From Eledone cirrhosa (taxonomy: Eukaryota), in contig OZ024742.1 of assembly GCA_964016885.1 (NCBI GenBank), positions 310,000,001 to 310,064,000 on the forward strand: a stretch of 64,000 nt of DNA, read 5' to 3'. This document shows, one piece after another, positions 6,456-61,241 of this stretch. The notes beneath the pieces are model-generated. The model worked only from the letters and a program-made list of their open reading frames with translations. It was not told where the DNA came from and did not search any database. Every line of letters begins with the position of its first letter. Within the stretch, counting starts at the first letter, position 1. The position numbers and the translations under genes are program-made.

Positions 6456-6631
6456 ATATATATATATATATGAAAGACGTAAAATAAGAGAATTATGAAA
6501 ATCAACTTACTTACTAAAATTTCACTCCAACTAATTAGTTTCTGTAAGGGAATAAATATGGTTACGGAACTGAATTATTTTTATATGAGTTCCCTGTGTC
6601 CACGCATTGCCTGGGAACTTAGCTGAGAATA

Positions 6632-6713
6632 GACTCTCTGATGACGTAAGGATTCTCTATGATTACGTTCCATAATCATATTTATTCCCTTACAGAAACT
6701 AATTAGTTGGAGT
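6632..6713 (+). ncRNA. Type I hammerhead ribozyme, unit 1
   Basis: ACTCT-CTGATGA-(cGTAAGG..CCTTACa)-GAAA-CTAATTAG-TT-GGAGT. Confidence 0.7.
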
Positions 6714-7160
6714 GAAATTTTAGTAAGTAAGTTGATTTTCATAATTCTCTTATTTTACGTCTTTCATATAATTGTTCTGCATGCCCTTGCATTGAACTAC
6801 AAAGTTACTAAGACAAAACCTATATATTTGCTAGCATAGGTATGCATCTGTATACATATGTTGGTAGATATACTAATTCTTTATAATTATCTCCAAATTA
6901 TTTGTTGAGCAAAAATTTGCCGATATTACTGCTATGGTTCATGGTAGTGGTCAGGCTCCTGTTTTATTAGCATCCCACTCCTCACTGATTAACCTCAGTG
7001 TCACGTGATTGATTCTTTTGAATTTGCCACTGACCAAGTAGGCAGTGAATTTTTTCAATATCCTGGAATTTAGTCCCCGCTCGCTTTTTTCCATCTACTG
7101 AATTATTTTTATATGAGTTCCCTGTGTCCACGCATTGCCTGGGAACTTAGCTGAGAATAG

Positions 7161-7241
7161 ACTCCCTGATGACGTAAGGATTCTTTATGATTACGTTCCG
7201 TAACCATATTTATTCCCTTACAGAAACTAATTAGTTGGAGT
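7161..7241 (+). ncRNA. Type I hammerhead ribozyme, unit 2
   Basis: ACTCC-CTGATGA-long stem II-GAAA-palindromic CTAATTAG-TT-GGAGT. Confidence 0.75.
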
Positions 7242-7688
7242 GAAATTTTAGTAAGTAAGTTGATTTTCATAATTCTCTTATTTTACGTCTTTCATATAAT
7301 TGTTCTGCATGCCCTTGCATTGAACTACAAAGTTACTAAGACAAAACCTATATATTTGCTAGCATAGGTATGCATCTGTATACATATGTTGGTAGATATA
7401 CTAATTCTTTATAATTATCTCCAAATTATTTGTTGAGCAAAAATTTGCCGAAATTACTGCTATGGTTCATGGTAGTGGTCAGGCTACTGTCTTATTAGCA
7501 TCCCACTCCTCACTGATTAACCTCAGTGTCACGTGATTGATTCTTTTGAATTTGCCACTGACCAAGTAGGCAGTGAATTTTTTCAATATCCTGGAATTTA
7601 GTCCCCGCTCGCTTTTTTCCATCCACTGAATTATTTTTATATGAGTTCCCTGTGTCCACGCATTGCCTGGGAACTTAGCTGAGAATAG

Positions 7689-7768
7689 ACTCCCTGATGA
7701 CGTAAGGATTCTCTATATTACGTTCCGTAACCATATTTATTCCCTTACAGAAACTAATTAGTTGGAGT
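7689..7768 (+). ncRNA. Type I hammerhead ribozyme, unit 3
   Basis: Same motif; CTGATGA at 7694, GAAA at 7750. Confidence 0.75.
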
Positions 7769-7937
7769 GAAATTTTAGTAAGTAAGTTGATTTTTATAAT
7801 TCTCTTATTTTACGTCTTTCATATAATTGTTCTGCATCCCCTTGCATTGAACTACAAAGTTACTAAGACAAAACCTATATATTTGCTAGCATAGGTATGC
7901 ATCTGTATACATATGTTAGTAGATATACTAATTCTAC

Positions 7938-7988
<51 letters not shown>

Positions 7989-8322
7989 TAAACGGAATAG
8001 AAAATGCTGACAAATTGTTCACAGTTGAAAAATGGTTTAATTAGGAATAAAAGAGTATTAGTGATTGTATAGGTTAGTATTCAGTTTTGGTTTTAAGTTT
8101 TTAAGTTTTTACCGGTTGCGCATTTCTAAATGCTTTTCAAAAATAATTTTGAGATAGAGTGTCCGTGCTGTTTGCTCTGATCTGATTAGTTTTGGGAATT
8201 CTACCTGTTTTTATGTTAAAAAAGTGGCTCCAGCGTTACATTGGTGTTGCAAAAATTCTTGTGGTCAAAACAATTTTGATTGGTCGGTAGAGGTCATGTG
8301 AATAAAAAATTAGTTTTGCGCC

Positions 8323-9639
8323 ATGAACCACAATGAACTCCCACAACGCATCAAAAAAGAATTCGTGATAGAGGGACTCAAATTTATCTTGGAGAACAAT
8401 TACTTCGTTTTCAATAACAAACCCTACAGGCAGAAATCTGGGACCGCTATGGGAACGAAAACAGCCCCCACTTATGCCAACCTAGTCATGGGATACCTGG
8501 AAATCACCCTCTACACTAAAGTCCTAAACAAATTTGGAAACACCCTCCACTTACACATTGAAAGGAACTGGAAGCGATATCTAGATGACTGCTTCATCCT
8601 TTGGCACGAAAACATCGAAAAACTTAAAGAATTTCACACCCTTATAAATGGGCTCAACACAAATATTAACTTCACGATGGAATACAGCCATCAACAACTC
8701 CCCTTCCTCGACATCCTCATTAAGATCCATAACAAAAAAATAGAAACAGACATATACTACAAGCCCACAGACTCCAAGCAATATCTCCCCTTCAACTCTT
8801 GCCACCCTAGACACGTTAAAATTAATATTCCCTACAACTTAGCCAAGAGAATCTGTACTATAGTCTCCAATAAAAACATCTGCTACTTACGGCTACAAGA
8901 ACTAAAGGACACACTCATAGGCAGGGACTACCCTGCATCACTAATTGACAATGGAATCCAACGTGCCCTAAAACTCAGTACCCAGGACCTTAGACATCCT
9001 AAAGTAAATCAACCAAAACTAAAAGCTCTTCCATACATCTCCACACACAACCCCCTCAACAATGAGGCCTTTGACACCATTCTCCAGAACATCCCTGTAT
9101 TGAAAAAGGACCATAGAATGAACCAAATTCTACGAACACACGATATCATAAAGAGCAAAAGACAATCCAAGTCAATGAAAAACATCTTAACACATGCCAA
9201 AGTACTGCCAACCACAACAACGAAACCCACAGTAAAAAAATGCGATAGACCCAACTGTGGCATTTGCATCAACCTAATAGAGGGTTCGGAATTCTATTTC
9301 AAAGATGGACAACGTTTTATAGTAAAACACAATTTCACATGTGCATCGGAAAATCTAATATATGTATTAACTTGTTCAGGTTGTCGAGAACAATACATAG
9401 GCCAGACCAAAAACAGCCTCCGCCAACGCATGACTGTCCATAGATCCCAAATCAAAATACGGGAATACAGGAAAATACCACTGAGTGAACACATTGATAC
9501 CTGTGCCGCCCAAAATCATCCCAACTTCAGAATCTTTCCCCTCTACAAATTTAAAGATAATGTCACCCACACCCAGCGCATCAGCAAGGAATCTTACTTC
9601 ATTAACAAATACGGACCCCGTCTAAACACTTCTCCCTAA
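8323..9639 (+). CDS. PLE reverse transcriptase C-terminal half, Cys linker and GIY-YIG endonuclease (5'-truncated; the ATG is formed at the inversion junction)
   Basis: RQKSGTAMGT, RYLDD, YYKPTD..YL.FNSCHP, CDRPNCGIC, NLIYVLTCSGCREQYIGQT. Confidence 0.92.
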   Translation: MNHNELPQRIKKEFVIEGLKFILENNYFVFNNKPYRQKSGTAMGTKTAPTYANLVMGYLEITLYTKVLNKFGNTLHLHIERNWKRYLDDCFILWHENIEKLKEFHTLINGLNTNINFTMEYSHQQLPFLDILIKIHNKKIETDIYYKPTDSKQYLPFNSCHPRHVKINIPYNLAKRICTIVSNKNICYLRLQELKDTLIGRDYPASLIDNGIQRALKLSTQDLRHPKVNQPKLKALPYISTHNPLNNEAFDTILQNIPVLKKDHRMNQILRTHDIIKSKRQSKSMKNILTHAKVLPTTTTKPTVKKCDRPNCGICINLIEGSEFYFKDGQRFIVKHNFTCASENLIYVLTCSGCREQYIGQTKNSLRQRMTVHRSQIKIREYRKIPLSEHIDTCAAQNHPNFRIFPLYKFKDNVTHTQRISKESYFINKYGPRLNTSP

Positions 9640-13185: not shown

Positions 13186-13247
13186 TTTTATTATACATAT
13201 TTCAGAGGTACTGAGCTATTTCATCAGTACGTCCTCATCAGATAAAA
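13186..13247 (-). ncRNA. Minimal type I hammerhead ribozyme
   Basis: Minus strand: TTTTAT-CTGATGA-GGAcGTACTGA..TCAGTACcTCT-GAAA-TATGTA-TA-ATAAAA. Confidence 0.72.
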
Positions 13248-15959: not shown

Positions 15960-18036
15960 TTAGGGTATAAAGTGGGGCTGTAATACAGGAAAGTATTATG
16001 CAATTTGTGTTTACAAGCCGAAATTGCCTCAGATTTTTTGTTTAAGATGTGGTCATTGCCGTAGAGTATTTCCAGGCCTTCAGCGGCGCAAAGATCACAA
16101 GGCCCTTTATTTCCGTTATACGATCTAGCACTCAGCTAGGATGTCCCAGTGTAACCTATATTGGGTGTGGTTGTCTTTTAGAATCCAGATATAAGTTAAA
16201 GTGACGTCATATTCCTTCTTAAAGGTTTAAGAAAAGAATGGGTATACATGTAAAGACGCTGCTTGAATCTATTGGCGGTTAACCCTATGCAGGCCCTACG
16301 GGACGTGTGTGTTTCAACCTTACATTTGTAGACAATGTTACTGGAGAGGCATTCCCCGGATAGAGGGCAGTCAGCCCGTTTCCTACAATTACAGTTAGCG
16401 CTAGCGACAGGGTTGCACGTGTTCCTACGACTAGGTAATTTATCTGAATTTGAAGCAGTGATGTTTTGAGCAAGGTTAGGAGTCGTAGAGTAAGATATTT
16501 TAATGGTATTTCTATTAAAAATATTATTATATTTATGTGCTGAGGGGAAATGCTTCTTAATAAGGGAGAGAAAGATCTTAGCTAATGGTGTGGCCACCTC
16601 CATATTATATGGCGGGTTATACCATATAATGCGTCAGGATCTATTTTTTCTTGGTCTATGTTCATACTTAGTATCGACAAATCCGCTCCGAGCAAGAGTT
16701 ACATTGTAATATGTGGAATGGCCGGTGAAAATATGCTCGTTTGTAGATCACAGGAAAGCCGCAAAGAAACGTTTCTTACCAGGTTCTTGGTTATGCTGGC
16801 AGGATGGTTAGAATGCTTGCTTATGTAATTAAGCGTATCATTCGGCTTTCTATACGGGTAATGCAAGTCATTCGACAAAATGAGGGTAACGTCGAGGTAA
16901 TTAACGACCGAGGGGTTAGCCTCAACCTGTATGGAGAGGTTGAAGCCTTTAAAGAAGGCTGTGAGTTCTTTTCTGAACCTGTCGCAAGCTCGTGGACCGC
17001 ACTTTGTTATGGTCATAAGACCGTCATCGCGGTACAAACCACCGCCCACATTGGGGAATTCTTCCTTGATAGAGAAAAGAAGGAAAAGGCCGATAAGATC
17101 TGTAATCTCCGCCGAATCGCTGGCGCCCATACTCACGTCGAATGGTGTATTAGATTGTTTTATCCAAATAGAGTCGTCGAAATTAATCACCGACTTACGG
17201 GCATTGAGGATGACATTAACTTCGAAATCCTTAACCACCGTGAGCGTTTTAGCGAAATTGATAGCTCTAAGAAGAAGTGGTAAAGTAATGGAGCAGTAGT
17301 AGTTATTGATGTCGAATTGGATAAAACGGCAATGTCCTTTGTTGCATATGCCATTGAACCAATCAATCACCGCGAAAGAATTATTCCACAAGCTTCTAAT
17401 TTCAGGTATAATTCTATCTAAAATCCTTTTACTAAGTCTACCTAAATCAGACTTCGTAGGGTTAATAAGCCGAATAGAGGGGTTGTTGGCGAAATTGGGT
17501 TTGTGATCCTTCAGGGTAAAGTGAGGAGAAATAGGGTCCAGAGGTTCAGTTCGGTCCTGGATGTTGAGTTCAGAAGTGATTTTAAACCCAGCATCGTTGA
17601 TGTCTTTAATGACACTCCGATTGGTTTTCCGGTAATCCTTAGTTACAGCATTATGTAGCAGTTGATGGTAAGTACTGCGCTCCACTTGATATAGATTGCC
17701 AGTTTTGTCGGAATGGACGTGCACGGCATTAGAATCCTTAATAGAACGAATTCTATTCTTCAGGTCCTGCTGGAAGGAATTGCTCCTATTCCAAAATTTG
17801 ATACTCCGTATGAGTTCCAAGACATCATTTTCGAAGGGTAGCAATGCTGGGTTACTGGGAGGGTTATTATAAGTTTTAAACCCAAATTTATCCTGTTTAT
17901 TATCCGCTTTTTCCTGGTTATCGAAATAAAAGACACGCCAACGCAGTTTGTTTTCTGTATCATAAGTTTTAGGTATGTCTTCGAGGTTAGGTATTGGAAT
18001 GTTCTTTGTAGAAATATTCAGGTGTTGTTTCTGCAT
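15960..18036 (-). pseudogene. Near full-length Penelope-like element ORF (Naiad-like), frameshifted
   Basis: STKNIPIP, DHKPNF..RLINPTKS, QFDI, MGASDSAE, LYRDDGL, CNCx5CPLxGxC, terminal CDLC..NKKSEAISACKH; frameshift at ~16730 and TAA stop at 16196. Confidence 0.88.
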
Positions 18037-18075
18037 GATGAATGTAAGTCAATAGAGTGCTCAACCGAGGGAGCC

Positions 18076-18179: not shown

Positions 18180-18422
18180 TATAATGAAAATAAAAGTTAC
18201 AGGCAAAAGAGGGTAATATACATCGTCAGTTGTCTGCTAGGAATCATAGGTATTTCTTCGCGTTTAAGACAAGATACCTCAACCTAGGGCGAACAATAAT
18301 AAAATAGGTTATTGAGATAAAAAATACCTATGATTCCTAGCAGACAACTGACGATGGACATTACCCTCTTTCGCCCGTAACTTTTATTTTCATTATACTT
18401 AATTGCAACCATAAAGCTCGCC

Positions 18423-20679: not shown

Positions 20680-22190
20680 TATTTATTGTTATACTTGGGG
20701 AGGGTCATATTGTTGTAATAATATTGCCAGAAATAATAACAGAACACACTCACTGTTTGGTTGTTTTTTTCGCTTCTGTATCTTTTATATCTCCATAGTT
20801 AATTCATTCGGCAATCAATGTTTATCATTGATTGACCAACGGTCAAAGATACAGATATAAATACATATATATGGTCTAACAAAGTTATTTCGTTGCACAT
20901 CTGCAACATCATCAGTGGTACTAAGATGTTTAATCATGTTGTATTGTATGTCTACGCCATTTTTATTTTATCTGTTTATTTATTTATTTATTTATTTTTG
21001 TCTTCTTCTCTGCGCATGCGTTTGCGTGTGTGTATAGTATTTGGTGTATGTGTTCGCGTTTGGGTGACTGTGTTTTGGTTATTGTACTCTATCTTAGTTT
21101 ATTGGTGTGTGTTTATATGTGTTTGTTGTTATTATGCTTGTGTATATTATTTATTTATTTATATTTCTCTTAAGTCAGTATTGTTTGTTTGGGTGTTGTT
21201 GTTATTCCATTCATTTTTTCTGTTTAGCTTTGGCTTTCTAAGGTCTATTTCGCTTGCCTCTCAGATTTGTCTACCTGCTGGGTCATTTCTATGTTTAGAT
21301 ATTATTTTAATTTCTATATTGTCTATGTTACCGTCATGTTGTTGTCTAGCGTGTTCGTATAGTACTGAACCTTTTTTTTTGGTCCTTTTAATTCCCCCCA
21401 GTGTTGGTCTATTCTTTCTTCTATGCTTCTTCGAGCTGCCTCGCCTATGTATGTTGTTGTCATGTTTATGCAAGTACCCTCTATACATCTTATGGTAAAG
21501 ACTACATTTCTAGTTTTACAGTTTATCCAGGGGTTTACTTTACATATAACACATTTCTTATTAGTACAGTAAGTTTTCTTAAAAGGGTATGTTTTGCTGA
21601 TCAGGGATTTTATGGTAGTTCCTGGCTTTTCTACCACTTTAATCTTTAAGTGGGTCTTTCTCAGGGCCTTTCTACATTGGTTAGCTAATTTCCCTCCAGG
21701 GGTAGCGTCCACGAACATGATACTCTGGTATCTCTGGTTGTCGTACCATGAGGTGGCTTTCCCTATCTTATGTTTAGTCCTATCTAAGCTATTCCATGAT
21801 TTTCTCCTGTATAATGGGCAAATTCCTTTCATGTCCAGTTCTATGAGGGTCTCATACTCCTCCGTGGCTCCTTTGTATACTCTGATTCTGCCTCTTTGGT
21901 TGTAGCCAGAGAACTGCATGCGGTTGATGAAGTGTTGGATGTGTCTTTCCATTTCTGTTGGGTCGCATTTGCAGGACACGTTTTTCATCACTTGTACCAA
22001 GTCTGCGATCAGAATATTAAACTTAGCACTACTGGACATTGCTGAGTTTTTGAGTATCAGGTATTTGGAGGCCATGGGTTTAGCGTAGTGTGAGTGGAGA
22101 ACTTGGGCCCTCTCGTCTATACTGTCAATCCAGATTTCCGTGTCTAATACAGGTAGTCTATTGTTAGGGTGTTTCGAAGGGTATATATAT
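20680..22190 (-). mobile_element. 5'-truncated Penelope-like element, third lineage (ORF 21323-22204)
   Basis: LPVLDTEIW, HYAKPMAS, MFVDATPGG, VVEKPG, Cys cluster, NVVF.IRC..YIGE; its 3' terminus recurs at ~11105-11170 and ~14720-14770. Confidence 0.8.
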
Positions 22191-22811
22191 GCATATGTAT
22201 TCATATAGTTATATATTCTTTTGCTGTGTTATTATTTTACTAATTTCAGACATTAGATTGCGCCCATGCTGTGATACCGCCTTGATTGAGTGGATCATAT
22301 CGGCTCTAGTACTTATCTTTTTATGTCTGGTACATATTTTATCGATCTCTTGGTTGTCGCATAGTAACGTTATGGAACAAAAGAACACATACAGACACAA
22401 ACGTAAACATAAACAAAGACATATATGGTTGATATGATACTAGTTAAAATCAGTTCAAACACAAATATACATTCACATATATACATGGATACATAGATAA
22501 ATACATTCACACATACATGCATATTGGTTGCATCGCTGTTTCGGGAATTGCCATCCCTTGACCTTTTTCTCATACATCGGTGCCACGAACATAACCTTTT
22601 AGCCATGTCTAGGACTTTCTGTGTATGATACAGCGAAAGAAAAAAAAGGCCATGCTCACGCAACATGTATATATCTGATGGACTTCTCCACTGACATGAT
22701 ATTACTCAAATCGAGGCTATAGTAGAAGAGACTTGCCCAAGGTGACGTACAGCGGCACTGAACTTATACATATATATATATATATATATATGAGATAAAT
22801 ATATATAAGAT

Positions 22812-23744: not shown

Positions 23745-25850
<2,106 letters not shown>

Positions 25851-25923: not shown

Positions 25924-26034
25924 ATTATATATAATGTATTTTGCAATACACTTTATGCATTTTGAAGACCGTAAGCTATTGTTTTAAAGTAGTGACAAAT
26001 TCACTCACTTTGATCTCAGCAAACAGGGGAGATA

Positions 26035-26078
26035 AGCCGACAAGACTTGTTTCGCTTTGGTTGAAGCTTATCAAGGCC
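26035..26078 (-). ncRNA. Type I hammerhead, U3:A8 variant
   Basis: Minus strand: GGCC-TTGATAA-GCTT(caacca)AAGC-GAAA-CAAGTCTTG-TC-GGCT; stem I extended by GATCTCAG../..CTGAGATC. Confidence 0.75.
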
Positions 26079-26233
26079 AACTACCCCACCTGTCTACTGA
26101 GATCATTGATGTTATATTCTTATAGAAATCTAGTAAATAATCAGGAGCTGATTATGCAGAGCGGTTGTTGGTCAGGCAGAAATTAAAAATTAGAATTATA
26201 TACATATGAATGTATATATTAATATATATATGA

Positions 26234-32250: not shown

Positions 32251-32518
32251 GATGGTATTATATCTTTTGTTTATTTTATTTTTTTTTGTCGTTCTTTTCG
32301 CTATCGACTCTGTTTTTTTGTTGTTGTTTTCTTCTCGGATAACTATTCCTCTTAGTTATTAGCGCACTGTGGTGAGATGTACTGCCTTTAATGCGTCGAA
32401 ACATCAGCGACCTACAACAGACAGCCGATGAGCGAAAATCGTCCTTATGTTTGTGTTTCTTATACGTTTTCTAAATAATATTCATTAGTAAACCACACAG
32501 CGCCTTTGTCACTTTTAA

Positions 32519-32697: not shown

Positions 32698-33597
<900 letters not shown>

Positions 33598-50879: not shown

Positions 50880-51058
50880 ATAACGAAGGAAGTGTGGTAA
50901 GGAACCAGATGGACCATAACGCACCAGAGTACTCGATACTTTGAGTAGTAGAGTGGGAAATAGGAAAATGTTTAACCCCGACGGCAGAGCTCAAACCGTT
51001 TCGACGGCTCTTTCTGGACGTCGAAATGGCTTGAGCTCTGCCGTCGGGGCTAAACATA

Positions 51059-51064
<6 letters not shown>
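50880..51064 (-). mobile_element. Short inverted pLTR insertion of the Naiad-like family
   Basis: Matches 58421-58560; inverted arm ~51020-51064. Confidence 0.85.
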
Positions 51065-51108
<44 letters not shown>

Positions 51109-51509
51109 CGTGTTGGCGTTTTTGCATACAGTTTGTGCATTTTCGAATCTAATGTGTGGCTGATAAAGCCTATTTATGTGTGTGGGTGGATATATAATTA
51201 CCATGTATTTAGAAAGCCAATTATCAAATATCAAAAAGATTTTATCACCTGACCTCTTCATAACTCAAACAAGACCTTCTTCTGCTATGGTCAAATACTG
51301 TGTTCACAGTTTAGGAAAACTAACATTTCGGGTATTATATTATATATATATATGTACACACACACACACAATATATATATGTATATGTGTACATGTATAA
51401 ATATATATACATAAATGCATGTATATATATATATATGCATATATATTTGTATAAATGTATATATAAATATATACACACATAAATGAATAAACATATATAT
51501 ATATATATA

Positions 51510-55388: not shown

Positions 55389-55873
55389 AATGCGAAGAAA
55401 TACCTATGATGGCTAGTAAACCACTGATGATGGATAGTCCTGGCTTCTATTTTTAATTCTTAATTTTTATTTTGTATATCACATTTGCCTCTTTCTCACA
55501 CTTTCACTCACTCACTCTCTGCTACTCACCCTCTCTCTCACTTCCTCCATCGTCCCACACCGTGCGAAATTCTTTTCTCGCTTACTTTTCGCACGGTTAA
55601 GATGTGTCTTTCGTCTTCTCGTCAATATTCGCAAGTTCTTATGTTCAAATGAATCATTGACTTGATTTTCTCACTTTTTCCTCTCTTTACGTTGCATCAC
55701 CATTCGTGTTTGTTTACCTGTCTCTCTTTCTCCACCCAATTCTTTTTATCCCAATAACTTATTTTAGTTATTGTTCGCGCTAGCCTGAGGTATCTGGTCT
55801 TTAATGCGAAGAAATACCTATGATGGCTAGTAGATCACTGATGATGGATAGTCCTATTTCTAATTCTTCATTT

Positions 55874-55880
<7 letters not shown>
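55389..55880 (+). mobile_element. 1.2 tandem units (414 bp) of the 'K-turn' family
   Basis: AATGCGAAGAAATACCTATGATGGCTAG at 55389 and 55803; ends in (TA)n. Confidence 0.7.
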
Positions 55881-55925: not shown

Positions 55926-56063
55926 CGAAGGAGTTGTGGTAAGGAACCAGATGGACCATAACTCACCAGAGTACTCAATACTTAGGGTAGTAGAGTGGGT
56001 AATAGGAAAATGTATGACCCCGACGGCAGAGCTCAAGCCGTTTCGACGGCTATTTCTGGACTG
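55922..56063 (-). mobile_element. Short pLTR 3' end of the Naiad-like family
   Basis: Matches 58421-58560. Confidence 0.85.
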
Positions 56064-56064
56064 A

Positions 56065-56140
<76 letters not shown>

Positions 56141-59719: not shown

Positions 59720-60890
59720 CTACCCCCCCGGGTCATTATGGGGTTTGAGGGCGAGGTAAGTCCTACGCAATCTATGTTTACATGCAGTAACCAGTTCATC
59801 TTTCTTGTTTAGGAGTTGGTCCGTCGAAAACAGCATTTGTAAAGTTTCCTCCGAGCATAAATTGCACGGACGGCGTCCTCCCGTGTAAGAATTGGCTCTG
59901 GACAGTAATCTCCAAGTGAGATCATAGGTGATGTTGTTGTCCTTGAGGTCCCATATGTGGCCCGAAAGTGTAGTGGCGTGACGCCGGGCCGGGTTTCGGA
60001 AGGTATGTCTATGTTGGTATAGCCGGGTCTTGAAGTCACATGCGGTAAGTCCTATATAGGCTTTGTTGGAGGTATCCGTCCTCACGTTGCACTGGTAGAT
60101 CACATTACGGTCTCTGCATCTATTGTCGAGTGGGCAAATAGATCTATCCGGGCAGTTACACCTCCTGGTCGGTTCTCCACTGCTATTTAGGTTATTTCTG
60201 CCATCGGGGTTGAGTTTTTTGTTGTTAGAGGAGACGATGTTTTGTGCGAAGTTTGGTGTAGTGCTGTAAGAGAGTTTGATGGTATTTTTGTTAATTATGT
60301 TGTGGTAGCGGTGTTGTAATGGGAAGTGTTTTTCAATGAGCCTAAAGAATAGTTTCCCGATGGGAGTAGTCACCTCTGCGTTGTGGGGAGGATTGAACCA
60401 TGTTACATTGCGTGAGCGGCGGTGTCTCCTGCTGGTTCCGCTAATGGGAGCTGGACAGTAGGATATTTCCTCCCGGAAACCACTCCGCTTGAGGGCCTGG
60501 TTGTAATAAGGCGCATGTTCATCGAATATCCGCTCATTAGCTGACAAACGGGATATGCGAGGGAGATGTTTTTGACCAGGTTGTTTGTGATGTTCCTAGG
60601 ATGGTTTGATCGGCGGTGGATGTAGTGCAGATTGTCATTAGGTTTCCTGTATGGGTAGTACAGGTCGTTTTCGAGGTCGAGGGTCACGTCCAGGAAGTTT
60701 ACTCGGGTCAGGGACGTTTGTAGGGTTATTTTAAATCCCCAGTCGCGGAAGAATCTGATTAATTGTTTCCGGACCCGATCTGTACTACTGGGGTTGTACC
60801 CTTTAAGGGTAAGGAGCCCATCATCACGGTACAATCCACCACCGAATGCAGGAAACATATCAGTGAGTTTGGCTATTAGGAATAATCCTA
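59720..60890 (-). pseudogene. PLE RT C-terminus plus GIY-YIG endonuclease, one frameshift at ~60550
   Basis: LYRDDGL, NFLDVTLDL, YRKPND, WFNPP, CNCx5CPL, VIYQC..YIGLT, CNLC. Confidence 0.9.
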
Positions 60891-61241
60891 TATTTTATTC
60901 TAGCCTAACAATAGCCTGACACCTAGGTCGTAGAATTTAATTTACTTTACTTTTTTCTTTACACTTATTTGCTTCTCTTCTCTCTCAGTATTTTTTCTTT
61001 CCTAGATATTTCTACCCCCCATTGTTCTACCTACCGTTCCGATTTCCTCCCCCTCCCCCTCCCCTGTATCTTCTTTGACCTCATGCCCAGCTGTAGCTGG
61101 CACTACCAACGCTTGATTGGGTCTACTCCACCCCCTCCCCTCTTTCTCCTACTGGCAGGTTTAGCCACCATCTCCCCTACTAATTTGCAACCACAGAATT
61201 ACTACTGATTTTTGACAATCACTTTGACCATATATGGAATT

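Follow-up and report, generated by a model that had tools for sequence, protein, structure and literature searches.

The RNA encoded by positions 55747 to 55850 (+) of the window, by which we mean the whole 64,000-nucleotide stretch of Eledone cirrhosa contig OZ024742.1 analyzed here, is recognized by pattern and structure alignment as a permuted (type SGC) hammerhead-like RNA. We assign a probability of roughly 0.84 to the reading, made from sequence, that this is a complete hammerhead core arranged S-G-C at the 3′ end of Penelope-like element (PLE) repeats that are short and non-coding, that it likely cleaves itself, and that it was inherited from Naiad retroelements. The original prediction held that the element lacks a hammerhead and that a different RNA occupies its place. 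This part of the proposal did not survive, since all of the core nucleotides were found together with stems I and III in S-G-C order, and the RNA therefore reads as a hammerhead rather than as a hammerhead replacement. Stem I (UGGUCU/AGAUCA) had been missed, and GAAA and AUC had not been recognized as hammerhead core.

Architecture and conservation of the hammerhead-like RNA

Block S of the 55-kb copy (55789–55800, +) comprises the stem III strand GGUA (55789–55792), U16.1 (55793), C17 (55794), and the stem I strand UGGUCU; block G (55810–55818, +) comprises position 11.1 (55810), the core GAAA (55811–55814), and the stem III strand UACC; and block C (55832–55845, +) comprises the stem I strand AGAUCA, the core CUGAUGA (55838–55844), and position 10.1 (55845). 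Stem III forms between GGUA-U and A-UACC, the NUH triplet is AUC, and stem I pairs the segment that follows H17 with the one that precedes CUGANGA. The core segments CUGANGA, GAAA, and NUH are all present in the motif, with the exception that family C (see below) has CCGANGA, that is, CCGA in place of CUGA. The cleavage site comes first, GAAA second, and CUGAUGA last. This SGC order matches none of the circular permutations CGS, GSC, and SCG (types I, II, and III); the earlier statement that the RNA cannot be folded as any of these types thus holds. U16.1 is separated from GAAA by 18 nt in this copy and by 15 to 18 nt in Naiad loci, and, by analogy with known hammerheads, cleavage is predicted to occur after C17, between 55794 and 55795.

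Read 5′ to 3′, the RNA consists of the P0 strand, hairpin P1, a pseudoknot strand, P2, UGA, GGUA-U-C, UGGUCU, and UUAA, followed by UGCGA, A, GAAA, UACC, UAU-GA-U, P2, U, AGAUCA, CUGAUGA, U, and P0. The closing helix P0 (TATCC/GGATA) pairs its 5′ strand (55747–55751, +) with 55846–55850, and hairpin P1 (55752–55773, +) belongs to the four-way junction present here instead of a normal stem II. A pseudoknot helix (55775–55779 with 55805–55809, +) continues from position 11.1 and would act as the long arm of stem II; the UUAA linker lies at 55801–55804 (+). A K-turn-type motif, with a geometry that we infer from its sequence, connects helix P2 (CTAGCC/GGCTAG, 55780–55785 with 55825–55830, +) to stem III (UGA at 55786–55788, a 3-nt bulge at 55819–55821, and GAU at 55822–55824, +). 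The six elements described originally (the hairpin, the helix, UGA-GGUAU...AUACC-UAU-GA-U, GCGA(A)/(U)UCGC, CUGAUGA at 55838–55844, and the closing helix) were all found where they had been placed. Single-sequence folding recovered P0, P1, P2, and stem III in the 55-kb copy (z −2.9), and a number of copies scored weakly (z −2.9 to +0.25); note that ordinary folding cannot display crossing stems.

A profile scan of the window returned four full motifs (55747, 33066, 32336, and 18319) and two partial ones (55390 and 18322), which confirms the partial copies earlier placed near 55389 and at 18322. The three copies first described are indeed present, but they belong to three separate repeat families, and a fourth, at 32336–32436, had been overlooked. 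First-look DNA searches of the 3.0-Gb genome yielded 2425 candidates for family A (the 55-kb copy), 1170 for family B, 420 for family C (the overlooked copy), and 891 for family D, of which 40 were scored for each family; family B copies are about 98% alike. The family B copy (33066–33170, +; U16.1 at 33113) carries two private changes that damage its K-turn and stem III. The family C copy (32336–32436, +; U16.1 at 32380) has its CCGAUGA core at 32425, and the family D copy (18219–18319, −; U16.1 at 18274) is accompanied by an inverted, 5′-truncated arm of the same insertion, located by the profile scan (18322–18359, +). Motif copies decay after insertion. The two peculiarities noted at the outset, UGG in the 33-kb copy and a weak closing helix in the 18-kb copy, are real but represent private decay, as most top relatives keep UGA and GGAUA.

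Across the genome, 4,910 exact matches to a 29-place motif pattern were collected, versus 0 for the reversed control. Additional motif families were seen in the flanks of other loci, and one descriptor match in a duplicated, unrelated region was discarded as a false positive. Two more SGC families from this genome (L141:784-915 and L036:2047-2162) have no standard K-turn, and in one of them a hairpin junction replaces it.

To this genome's copies we applied an alignment of 14 real sequences chosen by us to represent the families and subfamilies seen. Over 35 pairs, 90.1% of 486 cells are paired, compared with 73.9% in shuffles and 30 to 46% in slid controls. Both sides change in 25 of the 35 pairs, whereas the shuffle mean is 16.1 and the observed count was reached in 0 of 500 shuffles. 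Such two-sided change is seen in 6/6 pairs of stem I (89% of cells paired), in 4/5 pairs of stem III, whose fifth pair, U16.1-A15.1, is invariant in all 14 rows, in 4/4 pairs of P0, 5/6 of P2, 4/8 of P1, and 1/5 of the pseudoknot helix, the fifth pair of which is held in 7 of 13 rows. These counts are not to be read as probabilities, because the structure was built from the same sequences and because the rows are related, given that the unit bodies of families A and B are homologous (67% over 325 nt). When five motifs from this genome were aligned with nine metagenomic ones, 11 columns proved invariant (U16.1, GAAA, five positions of CUGANGA, and one linker A), and 10 of these are hammerhead core.

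The motif is a real, selected RNA structure, and the conserved, covarying RNA with pseudoknots and a K-turn-type motif that had been proposed is upheld to this extent. Similarity among copies of one repeat could in principle be neutral, with no structure under selection, and both the decay of copies after insertion and the homology between the bodies of families A and B are what such a process would leave behind. However, every helix shows two-sided changes between families, the slid controls pair far less well, and the same layout recurs in unrelated sequences from several phyla, so that we regard this explanation as scarcely credible.

A structured RNA of a new class, with no relation to hammerheads, or a K-turn RNA resembling box C/D or SECIS elements, might also account for a conserved fold of this kind. 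No Rfam family matches the motif: the scan of the window at E ≤ 1 gave no match there, a 226-nt query at E ≤ 10 gave two chance matches only, and none was obtained in eight Naiad loci. The K-turn is of the box C/D type, and the extra helices are foreign to standard hammerheads. Against this interpretation stand the complete core, the two-sided changes in stems I and III, a published precedent for the block order, and the finding that the K-turn is missing from most non-cephalopod Naiad motifs even though these retain the core. We therefore consider a new class very improbable.

The precedent is that of Eckert et al. (2023, PMC10085705), who named the SGC order, which is not a circular permutation of types I to III. 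According to the portions of that paper available to us, cleavage at the expected position was demonstrated in vitro for five such permuted RNAs, at 0.007 to 0.13 per min, and the authors found no permuted hammerheads in known organisms' genomes other than one GCS candidate. The SGC and CSG hammerheads described there (HRIMA-1 and variants) resemble the present motif in their order, full core, short linker between stems I and II, and two core pseudoknots. They differ in having a normal stem II and an extra helix between stems I and II, whereas the motif has zero or one direct pair and a four-way junction. The extra helix that flanks block C in HRIMA-1 is absent here and is replaced by P0, P1, the pseudoknot helix, and P2 pairing with upstream strands. 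The searched text and supplement of PMC10085705 contain neither "kink" nor "k-turn," whereas a K-turn-type motif caps stem III here. No permuted hammerhead appears in the searched main text of bioRxiv 10.64898/2026.07.22.740005, and PMC13725137, in the parts seen, merely cites Eckert et al. A literature search that covered mainly open-access papers returned no link between permuted hammerheads and PLEs and no K-turn on a hammerhead stem III.

The split stem II and the K-turn-type motif

A direct, multi-pair stem II between the CUGANGA and GAAA strands is absent. A single direct pair between positions 10.1 and 11.1 occurs in 12 of the 14 rows from this genome, where it takes four pair types. 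Two helices depart from this pair: 11.1 leads into the pseudoknot helix and 10.1 into P0, and P1 lies between their upstream strands. Hammerheads usually have G-C at 10.1-11.1; the U-A pair of the 55-kb copy departs from this and counts against the hammerhead reading. Among the metagenomic motifs described below, 12 of 14 have no direct 10.1-11.1 pair, and the strand preceding GAAA forms 5 to 6 bp with an upstream one; a normal stem II, of 4 bp, is present in L262 and L263. Block C can thus be opened after A9, a point at which the three-block scheme, in the parts of PMC10085705 consulted, took block C as never opened. The CSG descriptor of the same paper demands G-C plus at least two more stem II pairs.

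Between P2 and stem III, tandem G.A and A.G pairs come after a 3-nt bulge, with a helix on either side, as is characteristic of a K-turn. In 11 of 14 rows the strand without the bulge has UGA, which faces a variable 3-nt bulge and GA, and both flanking helices covary in the 14-row alignment. Families A and B have U:U at 3b:3n and G:C at 4b:4n, features that they share, along with the bulge and the tandem G.A/A.G pairs, with the box C/D-type kink-turn (PMC5689011). The motif differs from the latter, as far as the accessible part of that source describes it, in having C:G at −1b:−1n, in its lack of snoRNA context, in its location on a ribozyme stem, and, for families C and E, in having C at 3b. 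K-turns with U:U at 3b:3n and G:C at 4b:4n are very impaired in ion-induced folding and fold upon L7Ae binding (Ashraf et al. 2017, PMC5689011, in the sections seen), whereas C at 3b permits folding (PMC4382518, likewise seen in part). Since this pattern makes for poor folding of the K-turn in families A and B unless an L7Ae-family protein is present, cutting in these two families may be protein-assisted. Gating by a protein is a possibility only, as tertiary contacts could also hold the kink.

In the mechanism that we envisage, folding of a read-through or tandem transcript would bring the three blocks together. Stem II would consist of the one pair at 10.1-11.1, opening into the four-way junction made with P0, P1, and the pseudoknot helix. 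By bending stem III, the K-turn would return P2 to the distal ends of stem I and of the pseudoknot, and this P2/K-turn contact would replace the usual contact between loops I and II. The RNA would then cut after C17 (55794/55795), perhaps with the help of an L7Ae-family protein in families A and B, to yield unit-length RNAs of about 460 to 620 nt, which a Penelope-like reverse transcriptase/GIY-YIG enzyme would copy in trans into (TA)n.

Anatomy of the carrier elements and their 5′ junctions

The copies are short, non-coding tandem elements inserted in (TA)n, and the proposed setting, a microsatellite-targeting Penelope-like element with the motif at its 3′ end, is borne out. Intact units measure 568 nt in family A and 528 nt in family B, with longest ATG frames of 109 and 33 aa, respectively, and neither contains an open reading frame (ORF) for GIY-YIG plus reverse transcriptase (RT) of the Naiad kind. 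The family A insertion in the window (55389–55878, +) lies between (CA)n and (TA)n and consists of an upstream partial copy, which begins about 8 nt past the predicted cut, followed by an internally deleted unit. This deletion gives rise to the 414-bp spacing that had been taken for the period of the repeat. The motif is close to the 3′ end of the element: family A 3′ ends are sharp, at +87 to +91 or +125 to +130 from the predicted cut, and are followed by (TA)n. The 5′ ends of both families vary, and the copies form tandems and inverted arms. Another short element, itself bearing inverted arms, is also present in the window at 33345–33530, 55926–56065, and 50920–51260, and this same element repeatedly occupies the (TA)n immediately after families A and B, both here and at other loci.

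The distribution of 5′ junctions was compiled from copies of families A and B that were selected by their 3′ block only (91 rows from 84 loci, among the first 100 of 415 matches, for family A; 99 rows from 90 loci, among the first 100 of 745, for family B). Distinct junctions number 16 of 82 at +1 to +20 versus 5 at −19 to 0 in family B (p = 0.013) and 15 of 89 versus 7 in family A (p = 0.067). They peak at a TA at +8, with 7 junctions in family A and 11 in family B, compared with 0 to 3 at each upstream TA site, and neither family has a clean peak at +1. This pile-up fits templates that start at the predicted cut and are joined by microhomology, which is support rather than proof. Part of the pile-up may stem from a bias toward short insertions and from microhomology to the (TA)n target, and internal rearrangements contribute to the distribution as well.

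These data bear on whether the RNA is still active. The fold could derive from a hammerhead yet have lost its cutting, wholly or nearly so, and have been kept as the 3′ structure that the retroelement protein recognizes or as a scaffold for a K-turn RNP. A stem II of one pair, or one supplied by another strand, would be in keeping with such a loss, as would CCGA in family C, the position of the motif near the element 3′ end, and a K-turn pattern that suggests protein binding. On the other hand, the columns that stay invariant between distant elements comprise the catalytic core and a single linker A, the motifs parsed have C, A, or U at position 17 (G being excluded by the descriptor), and the 5′ junctions fall off across the predicted cut. 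We judge loss of cleavage to be quite unlikely.

Non-LTR retrozymes and type I hammerheads in PLE pseudo-LTRs have reportedly been described by Cervera and de la Peña. The families here are similar to these elements in being short, non-autonomous, PLE-derived tandem units with one ribozyme each, but the latter carry circularly permuted (type I) hammerheads rather than SGC ones. The window itself has canonical type I hammerheads, three in number and spaced by 528 bp, each with a long stem II (6620–7780, +; CUGAUGA at 6638, 7166, and 7694), and this array is, by its sequence, a putative retrozyme-like tandem. Type I hammerhead-like descriptor matches at 13241 (−), 13728 (+), 19655 (−), and 63420 (−), and a weak Rfam HH9 match at 26018–26088 (−), are probably tails of other Penelope-like families.

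Relationship to Naiad retroelements

The anatomy of the families matches that of Naiads and of other endonuclease-bearing PLEs, as depicted in the parts of Craig et al. (2021, PMC8557442) available to us. The families share with Naiads the (TA)n targeting, partial tandems, inverted 5′-truncated arms, 30- to 40-bp tail, and 3′-UTR position, traits of which the targeting, tandems, arm, and tail are common to other PLE clades; they differ in that Naiads encode an ORF. Craig et al. concluded that Naiads lack canonical hammerheads and described cephalopod Naiads as remnants. The portion of their File S1 that we consulted bears unexplained HHR_core and HHR_half_core flags (term counts 10 and 8) in 18 consensus sequences, including Naiad_Ovul, and the half cores were left unresolved in the text seen.

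We inspected by eye the passages of the published Naiad consensus sequences around four seven-letter core words, an approach that misses words split across lines and CCGA variants. A permuted layout was seen in 18 of 54 sequences, of which 12 are S-G-C and 6 are C-S-G, the latter all in nematode parts. The S-G-C cases come from Beroe, the Clytia part (one), Acropora (three), part 12 (two), a spider part (with a long insert), a crustacean part, Octopus bimaculoides, O. vulgaris, and Euprymna, with several of the species assignments resting on file order. No such layout was seen in the passages from bivalve entries. The Naiad tails of O. bimaculoides and O. vulgaris share the P1 loop and the K-turn with the window motif, and octopus tails have U.C at the direct 10.1-11.1 position.

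A second set was assembled by starting from a decayed Naiad-like RT of this genome, gathering 68 full-length relatives, and retrieving the best 80 of 498 metagenomic loci. A descriptor covering all six block orders gave 13 motifs on the sense strand behind the ORF (8 SGC and 5 CSG), with 0 canonical and 0 antisense in the same 80 loci and 0 to 2 per shuffle in 30 shuffles. Two further permuted motifs lie upstream of the ORF, and all 15 form eight sequence groups; three other descriptor matches on the ORF side were rejected as false positives. In the motif-bearing loci, the ORF has the Naiad layout of an N-terminal GIY-YIG followed by RT: Pfam detected one or both domains in six of the seven ORFs analyzed, and the seventh has the motifs by pattern. 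No motif was found in 65 of the 80 loci, 27 of which have less than 400 nt after the match. Viral contigs yielded no Naiad relatives.

Several observations concern the Naiad-like loci themselves. The CSG motifs of L257, L260, and L271 keep the P0-P1-pseudoknot junction with P0 closed as a hairpin, and from their sequences are apparently circular permutations of the SGC layout within Naiads. The Naiad-type ORFs at L212:267-4187 and L221:24-4055 continue past the RT into a fused ubiquitin C-terminal hydrolase domain (Pfam UCH; E-values of 1e-33 and 3e-26), a pattern also seen in L213 and L222; this protease domain is not described for Naiads in the passages of PMC8557442 consulted. Rfam scanning of 18 of the 65 loci without a motif gave no twister match and, in four loci, weak SECIS matches below the gathering score behind the ORF, at L269:3095-3159, L233:1913-1977, L256:3318-3385, and L265:2319-2380, and these loci may be further selenoprotein Naiads.

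We also searched for an autonomous partner in this genome. Protein searches for Naiad RT returned 115 matches, or 53 in a stricter first look, most of them broken, and a Naiad RT pattern found one decayed copy. No Naiad ORF is physically joined to families A to G, and no recognizable motif was found behind the Naiad-like RT copies of this genome. The only motif near a Naiad RT remnant (L497) was rejected as a separate insertion in (CA)n. A short pattern taken from the published octopus Naiad tail had one match, which is a further motif family without an ORF. A PLE ORF at 16.7–18.0 kb was rejected as the partner of the 18-kb copy because (TA)n and another element's inverted repeat intervene, and a 3.3-kb tandem on C2 and 458-bp pairs lie in segmental duplications and are not full-length PLEs. 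The window holds PLE ORF fragments with a C-terminal GIY-YIG at 16196–18048 (−), 59720–60894 (−), 8314–9639 (+), 21323–22228 (−), and 23910–24398 (+). They are unrelated to the motif families, and we take them, by their motifs, to be Hydra-, Neptune-, or Nematis-like.

Such fragments raise the prospect of a working SGC hammerhead that originated in, or is mobilized by, another PLE clade (Hydra, Neptune, or Poseidon). This proposal concerns origin and mobilization, and it is thus compatible with the SGC fold. Besides the C-terminal-endonuclease ORFs of the window, it draws on the finding of only decayed Naiad RTs in a genome whose family B copies are nevertheless about 98% alike. Yet the other clades carry canonical type I hammerheads, according to the rows of File S2 seen (PMC8557442), and the P0-P1-pseudoknot layout closely matches Naiad tails, and we hold an origin outside Naiads to be unlikely. 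Most likely, to judge by sequence relationships, the motif is a working hammerhead in SGC order with a new periphery, and its carriers are non-autonomous, Naiad-derived elements.

A broader idea, which we put forward tentatively and consider doubtful at present, is that non-circularly permuted hammerheads occur in nature chiefly in the Naiads of ctenophores, cnidarians, nematodes, arthropods, and cephalopods, in a four-block layout with block C opened by a two-helix insertion, and that the octopod K-turn lets a host protein of the 15.5K/L7Ae family switch cutting on. If true, these findings would explain why Naiads, which are among the most abundant invertebrate retroelements, seemed to be without hammerheads: many have one, and standard descriptors and Rfam miss it through its wiring. 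Non-circular permutations, known from environmental contigs, would thereby be tied to a host and to a biological role, with genomic copies in the thousands, and hammerhead architecture would be widened to include a split stem II and a K-turn.
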